Below, one piece after another: positions 1,127-37,717 of a stretch of 64,000 nucleotides of DNA (within the stretch, counting starts at the first letter, position 1; the number at the start of each line of letters is the position of its first letter). The notes beneath the pieces were generated by a model that searched no databases, had not been told where the DNA came from, and worked only from the letters and a program-made list of their open reading frames with translations. Source of the stretch: Candidatus Nomurabacteria bacterium (lineage in GTDB: Bacteria > Patescibacteriota > Saccharimonadia > Saccharimonadales > CAIOMD01). The stretch covers positions 71,218 through 135,217 of the forward strand of contig JACKGO010000002.1 in assembly GCA_020631975.1 (NCBI GenBank). Reading direction: 5' to 3'. The position numbers and the translations under genes were made by a program.

Positions 1127-3638
1127 TGTCGTCTGCCGTCTCTTCTACTTCTTGTAAGACCTTCGCTACCAATGCAAGAGAAACAACACTATCACCGTTA
1201 TTTAAACGCATGATACGAACACCTTGAGTTGCGCGACCGAGTTCTGATATATCTTTAATGCCTAAACGTATAGTTTGCCCTTGAGAAGAAATGATAATCA
1301 CCTCATTCGCTTCTTCTGTAAGATTGGCGACACCAATTAGATTACCGGTTTTTTTGTTAACAACCGCTGATCTAATACCTACACCACCCCTTTTATGAGC
1401 AGTAAACTGAGCAACCTTCGTACGCTTGCCATACCCTAGTTCGCTAATAACAAATATATTTGAATCTTCGTGAACTATATCCATGCCGATAACGTAATCG
1501 TTCGGGCGCAAACGTATTCCACGTACACCCCTAGATACTCTCCCCATAGCCCTAACTTCTTTTTCATGGAACCGTATCGCTTGACCTAACGATGTAGAAA
1601 TAACTACTTCGTTATCTCCTGTGCTAAAGCGAATCCACTTTAATTCATCACCATCATCTAGGTTAATTGCTATGAGCCCAGAGGTGCGTACATTTCTGTA
1701 CTGTTCGTATGCAGTTTTCTTTACAACACCCCGTACTGTTGCCATGAACAAATATCCGTTCTCTTCTGACTTGCTTACCCTTATAAGTGCACTTACTTTT
1801 TCTTCAGGCTGTAACTGCAATAGGTTTACAATAGCAACGCCCTTTGCATTGAGGCCAGTTGCTGGAATTTCGTAACCTTTTAGTCGGAATACCCTTCCTT
1901 TATTGGTAAAGAACAGCAAAAAGTCATGCGTGCTGGCAATAACAAGATGTTCTATAAGATCTTCATCTCTGGTTGTCATACCGCGACGACCCTTACCACC
2001 GCGACCTTGTCTTTTATAGTCTACAGCTGGGCTTCGTTTAATATAGTTTTCTGTTGTTAGAGTTACTACTACTTGTTCATCAGGAATTAGTTCTTCGTCA
2101 CTAAACTTTCCAAGCTCTTGAGAGACTATCTTGGTACGTCGCTCATCACCGTAGCGCTCTTTAAGGTCGGCAAGTTCTTGCTTGATAATACCCAATATCT
2201 TGGTTTCATCTGCCAAAATAGCCTTGAGGTTAGTAATAAGTTTGATAAGTTCGGCAAGTTCATCTTCAATTTTTTGTCGCTCTAGACCTGTTAGTGTTCT
2301 AAGTGGCAACGCTAAGATAGATTTTGCCTGAATCTCAGACAGCTTAAATTGCTGCATAAGGTTCTTGGAAGCTTCTTCTACCGTCTTAGAAGCACGTATG
2401 ACACGAATTACTTCGTCTATATTATCTAAGGCTACTTTATATCCTTCTAGTATGTGGGCACGAGCCTCTGCCTTCTTGAGCTCGAATTCAGTCCTGCGCC
2501 GTACGACAACTTGGCGATGCTTAATATATTCGTGCAATATATCACTAAGGCTCAGAACTCGTGGTTGAATACCATCAACTAACGCGAGCATATTGTAATG
2601 AAACGATGTTTGCAGTGGAGTAAGTTTATATAATTGATTCAATACTTTTTTAGGGTATGCATCTTTTTTCAGGTCTACCACAATACGCACAATACCGCGG
2701 GCACTTTCGTCTCGTAAGTCAGATATGCCGGTAATCTTTTTATCTTTTACTAAATCAGCAATTTTCTCTATAAGTGACGCTTTGTTTAGATTGTAAGGAA
2801 TTTCCGATATAACAATTCTGAATGCACCTTTTTTAGAACGCTCCTGAATATCTGCCACACCCCTGACAACCACACCACCACGGCCAGTCTTATAAGCAGT
2901 TGTTAACGATTCACTACCGTACACTATGCCACCCGTAGGGAAATCAGGACCTTTCACATATTGCAATAGATCGTCGGTACTTGCTTCTGGTGTGTCTATA
3001 AGATGCGTAATCGCATCAATAATTTCACCCAAGTTATGTGGAGGTATAGACGTAGCCATTCCTACCGCTATTCCAATCTGTCCGTTTAAAAGAAGATTCG
3101 GTAAACGTGCGGGTAAGACAGTTGGTTCTTGCTTGCGGCCGTCATAGTTATCACGCCAGTCAACCGTTTCTTTATCTATATCTACGAGCATTTCTTCTGC
3201 GACCCGAGCCATACGGGCTTCTGTGTATCGCATGGCTGCTGGCGGATCTCCGTCCATAGAGCCAAAGTTACCTTGGCCATCAACCAATGTGTAACGCATA
3301 GACCAATCTTGAGCCATACGTACCATAGAATCGTAAATGGCAGAATCGCCATGCGGGTGGTAATCACCCATCACAGAACCTACCACCGTTGCGGATTTAC
3401 GATGACGTGCTCCGGCACGTAGACCCTCGAGGTTCATGGTGTATAAAATACGACGATGAACAGGCTTAAGTCCATCACGTACGTCAGGTAATGCACGCGA
3501 CACAATGACACTCATAGAGTAGCGTAGGTAGCTATCTTCCATGATATTTTCAACAGAGGTAAGTTCTACTTCTCTTGAATGTGTTTGAGCAGGAATAATT
3601 TCCATATCTGGTGTATCTTTTACTACATCTTCGTCCAT
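1119..3638 (-). CDS. gyrA: DNA gyrase subunit A
   Basis: 839 aa. The N-terminal breakage-reunion domain carries motifs [14 protein letters not shown] and [11 protein letters not shown]-terminal beta-pinwheel repeats are present. It lies directly downstream of gyrB. Confidence 0.97.
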
Positions 3639-3639
3639 A

Positions 3640-5619
<1,980 letters not shown>

Positions 5620-15608: not shown

Positions 15609-15610
15609 TG

Positions 15611-15974
15611 TAGCCAGATTGCCTATAAGCCGGGTTCTGTGATACGTCGATCATCTATCTAGGAATCGTATTGCTACGAATCTCAAGCGGGTTGACTTGG
15701 GTATAGCGGGCCACTAGCTTAAAAAGCACTACCCAATCCTTGCAGCCAACAGGGTTTACCCTCCTACTATGTCACCATAGTAAGCTGTGGGCTCTTACCC
15801 CACTCATTTCACCCTTACCTAGTATGCATTGCTGTCATAGTTAGGCGGTATCGTTTCTGTGGCACTTTCCCTAAGATTACTCTTGGTTGCCGTTAGCAAC
15901 TGTTGTGCCCTATACTGCCCGGACTTTCCTCCCGCATTTTTTTGAATGCAGGCGACCGACCGGCAATCTAGCTA
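15611..15974 (-). ncRNA. rnpB: RNase P RNA (bacterial type)
   Basis: The minus strand carries three conserved blocks. GAGGAAAGTCCGGGC is the rc of 15917-15931. AGGGTGAAATGAGTGGGGTAAGAGCCC is the rc of about 15789-15815. ACAGAACCCGGCTTAT is the rc of 15625-15640. A P1 helix can form between AGCTAGATTGCC (5') and GGCAATCTGGCT (3'). The ends are approximate. Confidence 0.9.
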
Positions 15975-31456: not shown

Positions 31457-32254
31457 CTATATAATACCAGTCACAAGCAATACTGATAAGACTGCCGCTA
31501 AACCAATACGGTACCAACCAAAATCTCGCAAACCCCGCGTACTAAGTAACTTAAGTAAAAAGCCTATAGCAAATAGGCCACTCGCAAACGAAACAATGTT
31601 ACCAACAAGCACAACACCAACATTAGACGACACGTATGACCAGCCACCGTCTAGAAGCATTACTTTAGTAGTAGCACCAGCTATTGTGGGTATCGCTAAC
31701 ATAAAGCTAAATTCGGCAGCCCGGGCGGCGCTAAGATTACTCCGTAAACCTGTCAGAATTGTTATACCACTACGTGACGTGCCAGGTATAAGTGCTATAG
31801 CCTGCGCAAAGCCAACCCGTAGTGCCACTGGCCACGTAACCGAACTTTCTAGCGGACTATCGTCTGATTCTGGGTTAGGCTTACCGTATATAATCATCAA
31901 AATACCTACTAGAACCAGCATTATAACAACGACCCACACCATATTATTGAGCGCTTTTATTTGATTACCAAACGACAGACCAATCGCAAAAGCCGGGATA
32001 GTTGCAGCCAGCAATTTACTCAGGAGGGCCCATTCTTTACCAACGAATGTTCGTATGATCAATTCTTTGATACGTTTGCGATAAAACAATATAAGCGCAC
32101 TGAGCGTACCTATGTTTAGTAGTACGTCAAACGCAAAAGATTCGGGTGTACCAAGCAAGTAGTTAAATATCACAAGATGCCCCGAACTTGAGACCGGAAT
32201 AAACTCTGTTAGTCCTTGAACTAACCCCAAAATAATTGCATCTAAATAGCTCAT
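31457..32254 (-). CDS. uppP: undecaprenyl-diphosphate phosphatase
   Basis: 265 aa and polytopic, with motifs EFIPVSSSGHL and PGTSRSG. Confidence 0.9.
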   Translation of the reverse strand: MSYLDAIILGLVQGLTEFIPVSSSGHLVIFNYLLGTPESFAFDVLLNIGTLSALILFYRKRIKELIIRTFVGKEWALLSKLLAATIPAFAIGLSFGNQIKALNNMVWVVVIMLVLVGILMIIYGKPNPESDDSPLESSVTWPVALRVGFAQAIALIPGTSRSGITILTGLRSNLSAARAAEFSFMLAIPTIAGATTKVMLLDGGWSYVSSNVGVVLVGNIVSFASGLFAIGFLLKLLSTRGLRDFGWYRIGLAAVLSVLLVTGII

Positions 32255-32312
32255 CTTGTTAGCACTTATGCTACCACACTACCCCATACATCCCAAGTCA
32301 CACACCAACCCC

Positions 32313-32357
32313 ATTACACATATATTTACGCCGACCGTCGTAAATATATGTGTAATT
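32313..32357. terminator. 17-bp perfect inverted repeat between the PaaX-like gene and uppP
   Basis: TTACACATATATTTACG (about 32314-32330) pairs with CGTAAATATATGTGTAA (about 32339-32355). The right arm is part of the 22-bp direct repeat listed below. Confidence 0.6.
32332..32353. repeat. 22-bp direct repeat, copy 1 (CGACCGTCGTAAATATATGTGT)
   Basis: Exact match to 32949-32970. Confidence 0.9.
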
Positions 32358-32931
32358 ATAATATAGATTTAAATTTTTGTATGAGCTGGTTTTGGCCGTC
32401 TAGGTGCGTAACTTCTGCACTAATAATGTGTTTACTCGCAAATGGGTAGTTTGTGTGCACCATAGCTACAAATTCGCTAATATCGTATGGGTAGACGTAT
32501 ACGCTATTTTGAATTAATACCATCCCTAAAGATTCAATTTTATAGCGTAGCGTATCCCGCACTAATCTATATTGTTCAGGAATATCGAACATTAATAAAT
32601 GCCATTTATTGTCCCAAGCTCCATTAATAGGGATTTTGTAATCTTCAAATAGCACCTTGGTATTTATACTTTGCCCTTTTGGTGTAAGCGTTATTGCATA
32701 CCTATTGTCATCTATTTTTTGAACACTAAAATAACCGCTATTTTTTACTTGTTCACTAAATCGTTTGGGCTGTTTTTTGTTGAGCTTCTTAGCAACCAAC
32801 GTAATAGCCTGTGTCGCATTAGGCGCTACAACAATAATACCCGCCGCTCCTGCAGCACCAGCTGTTTTAACAAAAGCGCGCATTGTTATATTGGTAATCT
32901 TTTTTATGTTCGTATATTTCTTATTCTTCAT
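32356..32931 (-). CDS. PaaX-C-terminal-like / Cas2-fold domain protein with N-terminal TM segment
   Basis: The WDNKWHLLMFDIPEQYRLVRDTLRYKIESLGMVLIQNSVYVYP pattern matches the PaaX-type WxxxWxxxxFxIPE...R..LR module. The likely start is ATG 32931 (MKNKKY) rather than the GTG at 32949 in the track. Confidence 0.45.
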   Translation of the reverse strand: MKNKKYTNIKKITNITMRAFVKTAGAAGAAGIIVVAPNATQAITLVAKKLNKKQPKRFSEQVKNSGYFSVQKIDDNRYAITLTPKGQSINTKVLFEDYKIPINGAWDNKWHLLMFDIPEQYRLVRDTLRYKIESLGMVLIQNSVYVYPYDISEFVAMVHTNYPFASKHIISAEVTHLDGQNQLIQKFKSIL

Positions 32932-32948
32932 AATACATATATTATACA

Positions 32949-32970
32949 CGACCGTCGTAAATATATGTGT
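32949..32970. repeat. 22-bp direct repeat, copy 2
   Basis: Exact match to 32332-32353. It lies in the divergent spacer between the PaaX-like gene and the recombinase gene. Confidence 0.9.
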
Positions 32971-32979
32971 TTTTGAGGG

Positions 32980-33918
32980 ATGGGGGGAATGTCGTACAAT
33001 ATAAGTATGGATTTAGAAACGCTCATTGGGGATTATTTAGAATATATGGCTATAGAGCGTGGCCGTTCAAAAAAAACAATTGCCAACTATAGCCACTACC
33101 TAACGCGTTTGGTTGATTTTGCAGGTGACGTAACAATAGATGAAGTAACGCCTGATTTAATACGAAAATGGCGCCTGTGGCTAAATGACCTTGGCTCTGA
33201 TAGGTCTGACGAGCTTGGTAAGGCGACACAAAATTATCACCTAATTGCCCTGCGCAACTTTTTAAAATACTGCCATAAACGTGATATTGCAGCGATGAGC
33301 GCCGACCAAATAGAGCTCGCTAAAGTAGCGCGCACAAAAGTTACCTTTTTAGACAAAGACGAGTTAGAACGGTTGCTAGAGCAACCCAACACACAAGAAA
33401 TAGCTGGTTTGCGCGATAGAGCGATATTAGAATTACTGTATTCTAGCGGTTTGCGCGTTTCTGAACTAGTGAGTCTAGATACAGCGCACATAAACTTAAA
33501 GCGCCGTGAATTTACCGTACGTGGTAAAGGCCAAAAAGATCGCCCAGTGTTTATAAGCCAGCAAGCGGCTGATTGGGTGCAACTTTATATAGATACGCGT
33601 GAAGATGCATTACCTGCCCTGTTTATTAGCTATGGGGGCAAAGCAGCAACCAACACAACTGGTAACTACCGTCGGCTCACACCACGCAGTATTCAGCGTA
33701 TGGTGGCGCGCTACGCCCTGCTAGCGGGCATTACCAAGCATGTGAGCCCGCACAGCTTGCGGCATAGCTTTGCTACCGACTTACTCATGAACGGTGCCGA
33801 TATACGAAGCGTGCAAGCCATGCTTGGCCATAGTAACATTGCTACCACCCAAATTTATACCCACGTTACCGACCCACACCTAAGAGCTGTCCACGAAAAG
33901 TTCCATAATAAAGCCTAA
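32980..33918 (+). CDS. tyrosine site-specific recombinase (XerC/XerD family)
   Basis: 312 aa with an N-terminal SAM-like core-binding domain. Catalytic motifs are present: ...LRVSEL..., HSLRHSFAT, LGHSNIATTQIYTHV. Confidence 0.85.
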   Translation: MGGMSYNISMDLETLIGDYLEYMAIERGRSKKTIANYSHYLTRLVDFAGDVTIDEVTPDLIRKWRLWLNDLGSDRSDELGKATQNYHLIALRNFLKYCHKRDIAAMSADQIELAKVARTKVTFLDKDELERLLEQPNTQEIAGLRDRAILELLYSSGLRVSELVSLDTAHINLKRREFTVRGKGQKDRPVFISQQAADWVQLYIDTREDALPALFISYGGKAATNTTGNYRRLTPRSIQRMVARYALLAGITKHVSPHSLRHSFATDLLMNGADIRSVQAMLGHSNIATTQIYTHVTDPHLRAVHEKFHNKA

Positions 33919-34995
33919 TTACGGCGCAGGACAAGCGCCACCACCTGATATGTTAAAGTTATTAGCGCCATCTACTTTGATGTCTTTACACAAACTATCA
34001 GCTAATGCTCCAAAATATGGTTGCCACGTGCTATTTGACCCTGGAGATGTTGAGATATAGCTAATTAGTCTTTTAGATTGGTCTTGCGCGATAGCATTTA
34101 CGTCAATTTTTGTCTGTATGTTGTCTAGTTTGACAGGTACGGCACCGCTCAATGCTTGGTACTTCAGTGTAGCGGATTGATCACCTATAATCTGAAAATA
34201 ATATAACCTAGAATTAGGCAACGAAGAAGCATTTGCGTAGCCATTCAGATCTGCTTTACATTCACCGTTGGCTGAGCAAGTCACGTTAAATGCAGCCGCA
34301 TTACCTCTATTGTTAGTAGGTCCATCCTCTAAATTTATTGGCGTTGGAGCAATATTTTCACCCGCCTTAGAAGCTGGTATAAGGTAATAAACTTCTATTT
34401 TTGGTTGTGCTGTATTGGTTATATCTGCAGTTGATACACTAGCAACTTTCAGTATGGGTAATTTGCCTGGTTGCACAGGTTTCAAATTCGTACGACCAAT
34501 GGCCCCATCATATGCACTCATACTGTCGGCAAATGCGTCCACCTTCCAAGAAATAAGGTCTTTACCTGTAAAATTTGTTGTGGTAAAACTCCACCCGTCA
34601 TACGGCGACAGTGTCTTAACTGCTTCTTCAGGTTTGGCATCCCATGTCACGCAAGTGATGCGTACACCTTCAGAAAAAACTGGATATTTAAAGTTACCAA
34701 CTTCTTCACACCCGTTTTTTACACTACCTGGGTTAGAAGCACCCAAACTACCGCTTTTCACTTTTTCCGATATGTATGTGTTAGCTGCATTTATACCAGA
34801 CTCAGCTGCCAGTTGAGCTTGTGATGATAGTGTTTTATCTATTGTCGCCCGTTGATCGCGTCTCGACAGCGTTGCAAAACCAACCGATATAAGCGATATT
34901 ATCATAATAAAGAACAAAGCAAACATTATTGCTGATGCCCCAGATTGATTAAAATTAATAGGCTTTTTATTCATTTGCATTTTTATATATCCCAT
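33919..34995 (-). CDS. PilX-N-terminal-domain pilus-associated protein
   Basis: 358 aa. The N-terminus, QSGASAIMFALFFIMIISLISVGFATLSRRDQR, is typical of PilX_N proteins. It is the last gene of the minor-pilin block. Confidence 0.55.
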   Translation of the reverse strand: MGYIKMQMNKKPINFNQSGASAIMFALFFIMIISLISVGFATLSRRDQRATIDKTLSSQAQLAAESGINAANTYISEKVKSGSLGASNPGSVKNGCEEVGNFKYPVFSEGVRITCVTWDAKPEEAVKTLSPYDGWSFTTTNFTGKDLISWKVDAFADSMSAYDGAIGRTNLKPVQPGKLPILKVASVSTADITNTAQPKIEVYYLIPASKAGENIAPTPINLEDGPTNNRGNAAAFNVTCSANGECKADLNGYANASSLPNSRLYYFQIIGDQSATLKYQALSGAVPVKLDNIQTKIDVNAIAQDQSKRLISYISTSPGSNSTWQPYFGALADSLCKDIKVDGANNFNISGGGACPAP

Positions 34996-35574
34996 TTATT
35001 GTATCCTCGGTTTCACACTACTATTATAATTTACTATTGTACAAAAATCACCGCCACGCAATGTAGGTAAGCATTCGGTATACGAATTATTTTTATACAT
35101 ATCATATGTGCCTACGTTAAAACGAGTAGTTATATCAAATACACCAAGATCTGCTGATGGTTGTGTAATGGTAAATTGACTGACAAATCCATTGCGCGGT
35201 AGTAAATTTGTACCACCATTTGCTTGGCCACGTTCGCAGGCTGCATCGCTTAGTTGCCTTTTAAACAATCCATTATTTATGGTATTACCATCTGGTAATG
35301 ACCAATAATACATTACATTTCCAATACAAAAATATGTTACAGAATCTTCTGTTTTCATGTTGGTCACTGCATCTTTATTAACATATGCAACGGCATTAAA
35401 TATATCTTGGTGAATACTACGCGACGCATCGTTTAATTGTGCTGTATATGAACCTTTCTGATATTGACGTGACATACCTATTACGGCTGCAGTAACCAGT
35501 AATGACGCAACGCCAAATACTAGCATAGCTATCATAAGCTCAACTATTGTAAAACCTTTTTTACTACATGGCAT
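34996..35574 (-). CDS. type IV minor pilin (prepilin-type N-terminal methylation motif)
   Basis: The likely start is MPCSKKGFTIVELMIAMLVFGV at 35574. The track ORF start at 35673 adds 33 aa that overlap the upstream gene. Confidence 0.7.
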   Translation of the reverse strand: MPCSKKGFTIVELMIAMLVFGVASLLVTAAVIGMSRQYQKGSYTAQLNDASRSIHQDIFNAVAYVNKDAVTNMKTEDSVTYFCIGNVMYYWSLPDGNTINNGLFKRQLSDAACERGQANGGTNLLPRNGFVSQFTITQPSADLGVFDITTRFNVGTYDMYKNNSYTECLPTLRGGDFCTIVNYNSSVKPRIQ

Positions 35575-36064
35575 ATTGTAACTCCAGTTTAGACTGCGTA
35601 CCTTTGACATTAGCCCATGTAACAACAATAGAGTATACAGAATTCGTTGTTTTGTTCGTACTACAAATTGCACCTATAGCTTTTGTTGCCTGATCTACAC
35701 AAGATATTTCAATTGCATATATATTTGCACCACCCATGCTAATATCTTTACAATCTGCTTGGACCTCTAGCTTACCCGCGACATTTTTAAGACAAGTAAA
35801 TGACCCACTTGCAAAATCATTTCTAGTCGAACCACCGTTAGAGCCAGCGTCAGAAGCACGTATGTATTCTACCTGTTGATTTGCCAGTTGTTGCGCTTGG
35901 TACTGTTCTTTATTCGCCTGTAAACCAGCATTGCTTCTGCTAACAGTGGCAAAACTTAACCCGAGAGCAAAACTAAGAACGGTAATAGCAATAAGTACTT
36001 CAACTATCGTATCACCAGAATGATCTATAAGTTTTTGTGATTTATGTCTTTTTAGTGAATACAT
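35564..36064 (-). CDS. type IV minor pilin (PilV-like)
   Basis: 166 aa with a class III signal-like N-terminus, SGDTIVEVLIAITVLSFAL. Confidence 0.65.
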   Translation of the reverse strand: MYSLKRHKSQKLIDHSGDTIVEVLIAITVLSFALGLSFATVSRSNAGLQANKEQYQAQQLANQQVEYIRASDAGSNGGSTRNDFASGSFTCLKNVAGKLEVQADCKDISMGGANIYAIEISCVDQATKAIGAICSTNKTTNSVYSIVVTWANVKGTQSKLELQYAM

Positions 36065-36786
36065 TCTGGATCATCCAAATTCATTTCTACGTTTGTACTA
36101 CCGTTACGGCCAATAATTAGGCTACCTTTTTTATACCCGTCAAAACAAATACGTTTACCCTGATTCCAGTAAAGTGGAGTACGGTCTTTTGTCCATTCAT
36201 CTTCTGAGCGCGTTGTTATATTATTGTCATCTATATAAGCCTCGTAAAGGCTTGTTGTTTGCGAGCCATAATCAGTGGTTGAAAAATTCTTAAACATCAC
36301 TGCAAAGCCTGTTGATTCTCTTGGGTATGTACCATTAGATTTGTGGTGATATTTGTAGTTAATGCTCCCCGGGTATGTTATGTACGTTTCTTTGCCATTG
36401 CTAAGCTCTACGTCTGTGTCTAGCGAACCCCCGGAGTCTGCATATATGTTTTCTACTCTTATCATGCTTTTTCCAGCTGTACATGGTTGTCTAGAATTTT
36501 CATCATCGTTCGGGTCTGGAGCATCAGTACAAAAATAAATGCGTTTGCCTGCGAGCACCGTTCCAGCCGTATCATTCCCCGTGGCACCCGGAAAGTAACC
36601 GTTTTCTGTATCTTTTATTGCTTGTTGAACAGTCTGCTGTATTTGGCGCATGCTATCTTGGTAACGTGTTTTTTCTACCTGCCCCTGTATAAGTAGGGCG
36701 GTAGTCGTGAAAAGCACACCCGTAACTGTTAACACGATAAGCGTTTCTAGTATGGTGTAGCCTGTTTGTTTTTTTATTAGTTTCAT
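36052..36786 (-). CDS. type IV minor pilin / pseudopilin (FimT/GspH-like)
   Basis: 244 aa with N-terminus KKQTGYTILETLIVLTVTGVLF. Confidence 0.65.
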   Translation of the reverse strand: MKLIKKQTGYTILETLIVLTVTGVLFTTTALLIQGQVEKTRYQDSMRQIQQTVQQAIKDTENGYFPGATGNDTAGTVLAGKRIYFCTDAPDPNDDENSRQPCTAGKSMIRVENIYADSGGSLDTDVELSNGKETYITYPGSINYKYHHKSNGTYPRESTGFAVMFKNFSTTDYGSQTTSLYEAYIDDNNITTRSEDEWTKDRTPLYWNQGKRICFDGYKKGSLIIGRNGSTNVEMNLDDPECIH

Positions 36787-36838
36787 TACCCTGCATTATA
36801 CCATAAGCACAATTTTTGCAACAGAGCTGGTAGCACTG

Positions 36839-37717
36839 TTATAGGCCTAAAAGTACGGTGCTGTACCAGCTGCTTAGACTATCACCAAAAAATAAGGCTA
36901 AACTAGCGCCCAATATTAAAAACGGGCCAAACGGTATGTGCGACGTGACACTGAGTTTTTTAGATACGATCCCCGGTATTGCTACTGCCAAACCTACTAA
37001 GCTAGCTAAAAATACTGCAATAAAAACGTTTAGGGGCGACCCAGCTATAAGCCCAAGTAAAAACGCCAAGCGTACATCGCCAAAGCCAAGCCACGCTTTT
37101 GCACCGGTTTTATGTTGTTGCACAATATATGACACATAAAAAAGCGCAAAAAAACCAGCTAAATAAAGCACACCTGCAGCAATTGCATTAACCAGTGTGC
37201 TAGTTACACCGCTAAGCACTGCATAAAACAGCAAACTTGCGCCGTACGTAATAATACCTAGGTAAATAAGTTTAGATGGCAAAATGTACCATTTTGCATC
37301 GTATATCGCCAGCACGAGCAAAAATACTAGGGTAACAAGCCAGCCAGCAAGCAGTACCCAGCCATACTGCGCTGTACTAATGGGCCAAAAGATATAAGAC
37401 AAAGCAAATACTACTGCCGTTATAAGCTCTACAAGCGGATACTGGGCACTAATTGGCGCATGGCAGTAGCGGCACTTGCCTTTTAAAAGTAACCAGCTAA
37501 ATACCGGCACTAAGTCTTTGGCAGCAAGGGCGTGCTTGCAACTTGGGCACATGCTACGGCCATGCAGTATAGACAGTTCTTTACGTTTTGTGGCAGAGAG
37601 CTTTTTTGGGTCGCCATCGTCATTGAGCAGTTGGCGCAAGCGCCACACCCATGCGTTAATAAAGCTGCCCAATATAAGCCCAAGTACAAATAAATAGACT
37701 GTTAACAAAATGCTCAT
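36839..37717 (-). CDS. pilD: prepilin peptidase (A24 family)
   Basis: 292 aa and polytopic. It has two CxxC pairs (CPSCKH, CRYCH) and the conserved Asp-containing motifs of PilD. Confidence 0.88.
   Translation of the reverse strand: MSILLTVYLFVLGLILGSFINAWVWRLRQLLNDDGDPKKLSATKRKELSILHGRSMCPSCKHALAAKDLVPVFSWLLLKGKCRYCHAPISAQYPLVELITAVVFALSYIFWPISTAQYGWVLLAGWLVTLVFLLVLAIYDAKWYILPSKLIYLGIITYGASLLFYAVLSGVTSTLVNAIAAGVLYLAGFFALFYVSYIVQQHKTGAKAWLGFGDVRLAFLLGLIAGSPLNVFIAVFLASLVGLAVAIPGIVSKKLSVTSHIPFGPFLILGASLALFFGDSLSSWYSTVLLGL

Follow-up and report, generated by a model that had tools for sequence, protein, structure and literature searches.

Two copies of a palindromic site bracket a PaaX-like gene in Saccharibacteria and are candidate operators of the encoded winged-helix protein

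When a repeated sequence brackets one gene and lies next to the gene of a recombinase, to which of the two genes does it belong? This question is raised by a stretch of 64,000 nt (the window, to whose positions all coordinates refer unless a locus is named) from a Candidatus Saccharibacteria metagenome-assembled genome (MAG). There, a small gene coding for a PaaX-like protein lies between two copies of an exact direct repeat and is adjacent to a divergent gene, xer, coding for a XerC/D-like tyrosine recombinase. An earlier note on this DNA had offered two answers, a cassette that the recombinase excises or inverts, or a shared operator for the PaaX-like protein. Our analyses indicated that the repeat travels with the PaaX-like gene and not with xer, and that the two copies are probably (we would put the probability at roughly 0.6) cognate operators of the protein encoded between them, to which it would bind. 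The features that carry the argument are the following.

32356-32931, minus strand: PaaX-like gene, 191 aa, with a predicted winged helix and a Cas2-like (PaaX_M) domain, without PaaX_C.
32313-32356, no strand: site D, a near-perfect palindrome, ATTACACATATATTTACGCCG / CGTCGTAAATATATGTGTAAT, which begins at the stop codon of the PaaX-like gene and holds copy 1 of the 22-nt repeat.
32929-32972, no strand: site U, an imperfect copy of the same palindrome, which overlaps the ATG at 32929-32931 and holds copy 2 of the 22-nt repeat.
32941-32946, minus strand: TATAAT, a putative -10 box that lies 9 nt before the ATG, within the arm of site U nearer to the gene.

Analysis of the window showed that the sequence CGACCGTCGTAAATATATGTGT occurs exactly twice, on the plus strand at 32332-32353 and 32949-32970, while dinucleotide-preserving shuffles gave an expectation of 0 matches to this 22-mer even at 3 mismatches. 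The exact direct repeat reported in the earlier note is thus confirmed at both positions. Its length of 22 bp holds for the exact core only, since the full repeated unit comprises 42 nt at 83% identity (32312-32353 compared with 32929-32970). The 22-mer is the best-conserved part of a dyad-symmetric site of about 38-42 bp that is present at both ends of the gene. Site D can be scored as perfect 17-nt arms, TTACACATATATTTACG / CGTAAATATATGTGTAA, 8 nt apart, which is the perfect inverted repeat that had been noticed around copy 1, or as arms of 21 nt with 95% complementarity and a centre of 2 nt. Site U is a poorer palindrome than site D, and its symmetry is lost in the gene-proximal arm where the sequence reads TATAAT; this hexamer would be the -10 box of a leaderless or near-leaderless PaaX-like transcript. 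Copy 2 had been described as lying just upstream of the PaaX-like start, whereas the site that holds it overlaps the start codon itself.

No third copy of the palindrome was found anywhere in the 64-kb window, and Rfam and tRNA scans gave no match at the repeat locus. When metagenomes were scanned for the perfect palindrome, its centre being left free, the matches were the same locus (L106, the same as L008) and one unrelated contig, L105, in a collection that holds little of the window species and so does not settle the genome-wide copy number. In L105 an AT-rich palindrome, ACATATATTTAC-N10-GTAAATATATGT, was found at 3401-3434 just upstream of a long open reading frame (ORF), in a contig that is visibly GC-rich in the stretch read; it is a chance or convergent match that belongs to a different system.

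Homologues of the PaaX-like protein with 39-54% identity all carry a palindrome of their own, different from that of the window, shortly before the start codon and again shortly after the stop codon, and these sites are 26-43 nt long and 617-650 bp apart. The pair is kept beside unrelated neighbours, such as the MscS and MazG genes in L021 or a convergent PrmC gene in L024, with no recombinase nearby. A scan of the GTDB representatives (one genome per species) with the family alignment yielded 80 loci, all but a few of them in MAGs labelled Patescibacteria. The best local alignment score between the start region and the stop region was determined for 78 non-redundant family genes and for 350 neighbouring ORFs. 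The median score was 23.75 in the family genes and 9.5 in the neighbouring ORFs (Mann-Whitney p = 3e-39), and 66 of the 78 family genes scored above the 99th percentile of the controls. When the 12 failures were searched again with wider windows, 4 had a clear pair, 6 had weaker sites of the family type and 2 had none.

Alignment of site U of one locus with site D of another gave a median of 9.5 and a 99th percentile of 15.0, which is the background; the similarity between U and D is therefore a locus-specific co-variation and not a motif shared by the family. Even two family genes of one MAG carry different arms; such genes may be paralogues or may stem from co-binned strains. The closest family pair within one MAG is 77% identical, and no identical multi-copy elements were found. 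A Xer homologue was present within 3 kb at 3 of 84 non-redundant loci, namely the window and two syntenic relatives, so that the repeat goes with the PaaX-like gene irrespective of xer.

Exactly two sites were found at 55 of 61 loci. A few loci carry 3-5 copies of the palindrome (L076 at 397-430, 2350-2688 and 3543-3576; L102 at 337-640; L073 at 2510-2650 and 3478-3700; L054 at 3351-3480). Some of the copies stand in tandem at intervals of 80-180 bp, before or after the gene, and L076 has a perfect additional copy at a distance of 2.4 kb; they could be multi-operator arrays or the onset of a REP-like spread. Between the downstream palindrome and the MazG-like gene of L021, a perfect (AAGCAG)n tandem repeat of about 18-20 units was observed at 4700-4815.

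The sites of 66 family loci, aligned on their centres, are about 38 bp long. Their dyad symmetry is 0.88-0.97 at positions ±1-4, 0.56-0.70 at ±5-8 and 0.8-0.9 at ±9-18, and decays thereafter. C at -3 and G at +3 were found in 61-64 of the 66 sites, typical cores being GCTA|TAGC, ACGA|TCGT, GCGG|CCGC, GCAT|ATGC and GCCA|TGGC, while the arms are lineage-specific. The median distance is 31.5 nt from the centre of U to the start codon and 30 nt from the stop codon to the centre of D, and the centre-to-centre spacing has a median of 649 bp. The better palindrome is D in 40 loci and U in 14. A perfect TATAAT between the centre and the gene is present in 22/66 U sites as against 4/66 D sites (p = 1e-4), and in many lineages the order is centre, TATAAT, 6-9 nt and ATG, a layout that implies leaderless or near-leaderless transcripts. 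A T-run follows D in 5/66 loci and the downstream gene is convergent in 28/60, so that D does not qualify as a canonical terminator or as an operator for the gene that follows. The mismatches within the palindromes showed no strand bias (G:T and A:C in 21 and 14 cases, p = 0.31), which argues against selection on an RNA hairpin. Where the two copies are imperfect palindromes their relative orientation is direct in 17 loci and inverted in 9, including the syntenic relative L020, the remaining 40 being symmetric; this mixture fits a reader with two-fold symmetry and is not what directional recombination sites or the ends of a transposon would show.

Exact matching of the PaaX-like protein, of Xer and of BacA gave 14, 6 and 23 contigs of the window species, respectively, about 25 of which were inspected. 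All of these approximately 25 contigs have the same order of xer, PaaX-like gene and bacA and carry both sites, and no deletion, excision, inversion or new insertion was seen among the roughly 30 strain-level contigs obtained via the three genes; the excised junction for which the earlier note had advised a search was likewise absent from them. Strains differ only in the central 10 nt or so of site D and at isolated bases in site U, the outer arms of site D being identical in all strains, and this pattern indicates that the two copies are not being homogenised. The haplotypes of site D (window 32330-32339; L011 4542-4563; L110 and L112 165-202) differ almost only centrally. In one of them the central dinucleotide is flipped from AC to GT (CGACCG to CGGTCG), and in another paired changes occur at -4 and +5.

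The only Pfam match of the PaaX-like protein was the Cas2-like domain PaaX_M (PF20803; E = 5e-19, 68.6 bits compared with a cut-off of 24). The Pfam PaaX N-terminal domain gave no match, and neither did PaaX_C, the protein ending at residue 191; the scores against TIGR02277 and TIGR01573 (Cas2) were 20.8 bits (cut-off 264.55) and 24.1 bits (cut-off 24.5), respectively. An AlphaFold2 model obtained from a 79-sequence alignment, with a mean predicted local distance difference test score of 91.9, has at its N-terminus (residues 15-82) a helix at 15-30, a strand at 32-35, helices at 39-50 and 58-65 and a beta-hairpin wing at 68-82, followed by a linker helix and a beta-alpha-beta-beta-alpha-beta Cas2-like domain. 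The best match of the model in the PDB as searched with Foldseek was E. coli PaaX (8a39), over the full length (E = 1.2e-5), while Cas2 structures matched the C-terminal domain (E of about 0.007-0.05, probability of about 1.0) and MarR-like winged helices matched the N-terminal domain. The sequence profile of the family also matches 8a39 (E = 0.004). The model thus predicts a winged helix combined with a Cas2-like domain, a DNA-binding fold.

Assignment of the protein as a PaaX orthologue was rejected in view of the missing PaaX_C, the low TIGR02277 score and the lack of paa genes nearby or in any of the related locus tables. A CRISPR Cas2 was rejected as well, there being no cas1 and no CRISPR array nearby and only two repeats, 617 bp apart, with a gene between them. 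An aspartate, D116, is invariant in the 79-sequence alignment at what we take to be the position of the catalytic Asp of Cas2. PADLOC models of defence systems gave weak Cas2 matches only. The family is large, with 3,516 representatives of 50%-identity clusters at E <= 1e-10, mostly of 175-200 aa, and its members are variously named Cas2, PaaX, VapD or hypothetical in the databases.

The dyad symmetry of the sites, their locus-specific co-variation, the overlap of U with the putative -10 box and the start codon, the predicted winged helix and, within the window species, the constancy of the outer arms of site D together argue for the operator reading, which among the suggestions of the earlier note is the one now favoured; on the whole its interpretation is partly supported. 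We infer that a symmetric oligomer, either a dimer or a dimer of dimers in which the Cas2-like domain dimerises, would read the sites as duplex DNA. Its occupancy of site U would cover the -10 box and the start codon and so shut the promoter of its own gene (negative autoregulation), and in the window genome binding there may also affect the abutting xer promoter at its -35 element. Site D would then be an auxiliary operator, either strengthening repression through a loop of about 620 bp that encloses the gene or acting through the bound protein as a roadblock at the 3' end.

Several observations weigh against this explanation. A two-hexamer sigma-70 scan called no promoter for the PaaX-like gene at site U, and no regulon is evident, as the 64 kb hold no further target sites. 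The spacing between U and D showed no significant helical phasing (best period 10.5 bp, p of about 0.1), and an operator directly after the stop codon of the regulator's own gene is unusual. Since the symmetry of the 38-bp or so site runs through its centre and the C-N4-G core is near-invariant, the site would lend itself to a hairpin or cruciform too, and the invariant Asp leaves room for nuclease activity. Finally, at the same locus in relatives the gene is present or absent, each time together with both palindromes, which fits a mobile unit too.

This last point was seen in the intergenic region between ndk/bacA and xer, where the cassette is polymorphic across Saccharibacteria (L116, L118, L120 and L122 at about 2860-3010; L123 at 2427-2990). 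The locus is empty in four lineages, filled in the orientation of the window in three and filled in the opposite orientation in one. The four empty relatives have neither the gene nor a palindrome of this type, and their Xer is 74-86% identical to that of the window. L123, the locus with the opposite orientation, holds a very distant family member (20-25% identity) with its own pair of 37-nt palindromes. Across Saccharibacteria, homologues of Xer share 72-88% identity whether the cassette is there or not. The PaaX-like proteins, at 85-87% Xer identity, are 47-49% identical between the window and the L016 group, as against 66% for pairs within that group; the 47-49% of the window is much lower than the Xer identity would predict. 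When filled and empty loci were aligned in search of insertion boundaries or target duplications, the intergenic DNA proved too diverged, and a crude neighbour-joining tree, on the question of whether the xer-adjacent cassettes form one clade, was star-like at about 45% identity. Comparison of the locus in relatives, which the earlier note had recommended as a check on the cassette, spoke for it in the patchy presence next to xer and against it in that the empty loci keep no such site.

Three other explanations were weighed against the operators. As the main rival, the palindromes could delimit a small cassette of a mobile or selfish nature (palindrome-gene-palindrome, about 660 bp), the protein recognising the terminal palindromes, possibly as hairpins or cruciforms, and nicking or cutting them in the manner of RAYT/REP, of the hairpin ends of IS200/IS605 or of insertion sequence (IS) inverted repeats that overlap a transposase promoter. 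The empty ndk/bacA-xer loci, the oppositely oriented distant member in L123 with its own pair, the discordance between PaaX-like and Xer divergence, the company of both palindromes in every genomic context, the invariant Asp at the presumed catalytic position and the few loci with 3-5 copies are all in keeping with such a unit. We nevertheless consider it unlikely, because it is single-copy in 64 kb with exactly two sites at most loci of the family, has no identical multi-copy relatives (77% being the closest pair within a MAG) and combines copies in a mixture of orientations that suits neither terminal inverted repeats nor direct attachment sites. The same-species contigs gave no sign of excision, inversion or a new insertion, the unit keeping its position from strain to strain; the IMG/VR viral contigs yielded no member of the family, and no known domain of the transposase, HUH or integrase kind was recognised in the protein. 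The patchiness is explained equally well if the gene was lost, or was moved along with its cis sites. The more specific proposal that the unit is an unrecognised minimal selfish or mobile cassette of Patescibacteria, in which a Cas2-like nuclease guided by the winged helix processes its own terminal palindromes as in RAYT/REP or IS200, would account for the patchy presence, turnover and inversion next to xer; we hold it to be a shade more doubtful again. A further alternative is that the palindromes act as RNA hairpins, the 3' one terminating or stabilising the mRNA and the 5' one controlling translation, perhaps bound by the Cas2-like domain with its RNase fold. Site D falls within the 3' untranslated region, where its RNA would form a strong fold (-24.7 kcal/mol, z = -5.7), VapD, a Cas2 relative and ribonuclease, was named among the PDB matches, and the C-N4-G core would give a tetraloop closed by C-G. 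Against these stand the lack of a wobble strand bias, most mismatches being non-wobble, and the dip in pairing at ±5-8, in mid-stem. Moreover, U overlaps the -10 box and start, so that the leaderless class can transcribe its right arm only, T-runs after D are rare, and a terminator scan did not call site D of the window, where a U tract is absent. The lineage-specific sequence shared by U and D is also left unexplained unless a common factor reads both, and we regard RNA hairpins as quite improbable.

The remaining explanation, the one given by the earlier note in its cassette proposal, is that the repeats are dif, attachment or integron-like sites at which the adjacent Xer-type recombinase excises or inverts the 617-bp segment. 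It can appeal to the adjacent and divergent xer gene, all the more as single-recombinase Xer systems keep dif beside the xer gene (XerS/difSL), to the presence or absence of the cassette next to xer in Saccharibacteria and to the strain haplotype of site D with the flipped central dinucleotide. Yet 81 of the 84 non-redundant family loci have no Xer within 3 kb and nearly all have the palindrome pair, the palindromes differ between lineages whose Xer is 72-87% identical, the empty loci retain no copy of any such site and the orientation of the copies is not conserved. The likeness of the AT-rich core to dif did not hold up either. The dif consensus has arms of about 11 nt, a centre of 6-8 nt and an ATAA...TTAT core, whereas the present sites have arms of about 18-21 nt and a centre of 0-8 nt, unlike the 11-6-11 layout of dif; a search of the window for the dif-core pattern gave three weak matches elsewhere, at chance level, and none at the locus. 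The GC-skew profile, through which a dif site at the terminus was to be compared, is negative throughout the window with no switch near 32-33 kb. As no structural variants were found among the same-species contigs, either, this reading is barely credible and already largely refuted, and the pair of operators of the PaaX-like protein stays the explanation that we favour.

Analysis of the surroundings indicated that xer is a neighbour outside the repeat system; xer, bacA, ndk and pilus-like genes are the neighbours of the locus. Three further features are concerned.

33007-33918, plus strand: xer, XerC/D-like tyrosine recombinase gene, divergent from the PaaX-like gene.
31457-32254, minus strand: bacA/uppP, undecaprenyl-diphosphatase gene, downstream of site D.
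32973-33000, plus strand: promoter-like TTGAGG-16-TACAAT for xer, called by the two-hexamer sigma-70 scan and directly abutting site U.

The ORF of xer is open from 32980, and the true start is probably the ATG at 33007 (MDLETLI...; 303 aa in the NCBI record, homologues 302-305 aa). Copy 2 of the repeat, given as 10 nt before the recombinase gene, lies 36 nt from this start. The sequence TGTCGTACAAT is kept immediately upstream of the xer start in all Saccharibacteria relatives examined (window 32980-33009; L116 and L118 2982-3003; L120 2978-3002; L122 2988-3008) and resembles a TACAAT -10 box about 6 nt before the xer ATG, which suggests a leaderless xer mRNA. An integron integrase was tried as an identity for the recombinase and rejected, with 140 bits against TIGR02249 (cut-off 265) and 77 against NF011946 (cut-off 435), the XerC/XerD models scoring higher.

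The centre of site D is about 80 nt upstream of the ATG of bacA. The latter adjoins xer without a cassette in L116, L120 and L122 and is therefore independent of the cassette. At 10-15 nt upstream of the bacA start, the sequence TGGTAGCATAAG (TGGTAGCATTAA in L116) was found in the window (32255-32290), in L020 (4580-4600) and in L116 (2922-2935), conserved with or without the cassette; it probably belongs to bacA's own promoter, in which case bacA would not be driven from site D. In L016-L019 a PAP2-family phosphatase, presumably the other kind of undecaprenyl-pyrophosphate phosphatase, occupies the position downstream of the PaaX-like gene (4664-5182) where the window has bacA/uppP, and this exchange at a fixed position may be a non-orthologous replacement. 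An ORF of 11 codons, ATGGGGTTGGTGTGTGACTTGGGATGTATGGGGTAG, was noticed on the minus strand at 32279-32314. Its ATG comes from the outer edge of site D, just as the true start codon of the PaaX-like gene closes site U, and the ORF probably arose as a side effect of the repeat. Immediately beyond xer, at 33919-37717, there is a type IV pilus-like cluster (pilin-like N-methyl proteins, prepilin peptidase), and the window also carries the 5' portion of a 16S rRNA gene along with an RNase P RNA and six tRNA genes (positions listed: 1-493, 15610-15971).

Among known systems, PaaX of E. coli, a repressor that responds to phenylacetyl-CoA and binds palindromic operators, is the best full-length structural match (8a39) and has, as predicted for the present protein, a winged helix ahead of a central Cas2-like domain. 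The protein described here differs from it in its length of 191 aa, in the absence of PaaX_C and of nearby paa genes and in keeping the Cas2-type Asp, and its sites bracket its own gene instead of catabolic promoters. Paired dyad sites several hundred bp apart, one of which overlaps the regulated promoter, are also found with lambda CI (OR/OL flanking cI-rexAB), LacI (O1/O2), GalR and DeoR, and in lambda CI the repressor's own gene likewise lies between the sites. What sets the present family apart is the second site directly after the stop codon in essentially every member, with looping as a proposal and no helical phasing detected; to our knowledge, a second operator immediately after the own stop codon is not a rule of any repressor family.

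The RAYT/REP and IS200/IS605 systems resemble the family in having a single small gene flanked by lineage-specific co-varying palindromes and a ferredoxin-like (beta-alpha-beta-beta-alpha-beta) domain, and differ in that here there is no HUH/Y1 domain, the palindromes, two per locus with no further copy in the 64-kb window, are not dispersed and no multi-copy elements were found. The C-terminal domain matches Cas2/VapD in its predicted fold and in the Cas2 motifs FDIPE ... LQNSV; it is, however, fused to a winged helix, and neither cas1 nor a CRISPR array is nearby. In XerS/difSL, XerH/difH and the dif-integrating elements, too, a Xer gene stands beside a repeated, AT-rich and partly palindromic sequence and the cassette is patchy, whereas the repeats described here follow the PaaX-like gene, have no dif architecture and leave no site in empty loci.

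No paper on this family or on a gene-bracketing palindrome architecture was found in the literature that we searched, and as far as that literature goes the family-wide arrangement of a gene bracketed by its own palindromes is undescribed in Patescibacteria. These bacteria (the candidate phyla radiation) have very few recognisable regulators, and gene control in them is almost unstudied. The finding corrects the 'Cas2' annotations that members of the family carry. It is unusual for a second site to be tied to the stop codon; such a site may serve to enclose the gene in a loop, as a roadblock or as one end of an element; should the unit after all be a mobile cassette, the family would represent a new class of Cas2-domain mobile element. 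The palindrome pair would predict the DNA target of each member straight from its sequence, and the family offers a natural set of protein/site pairs for a recognition code.

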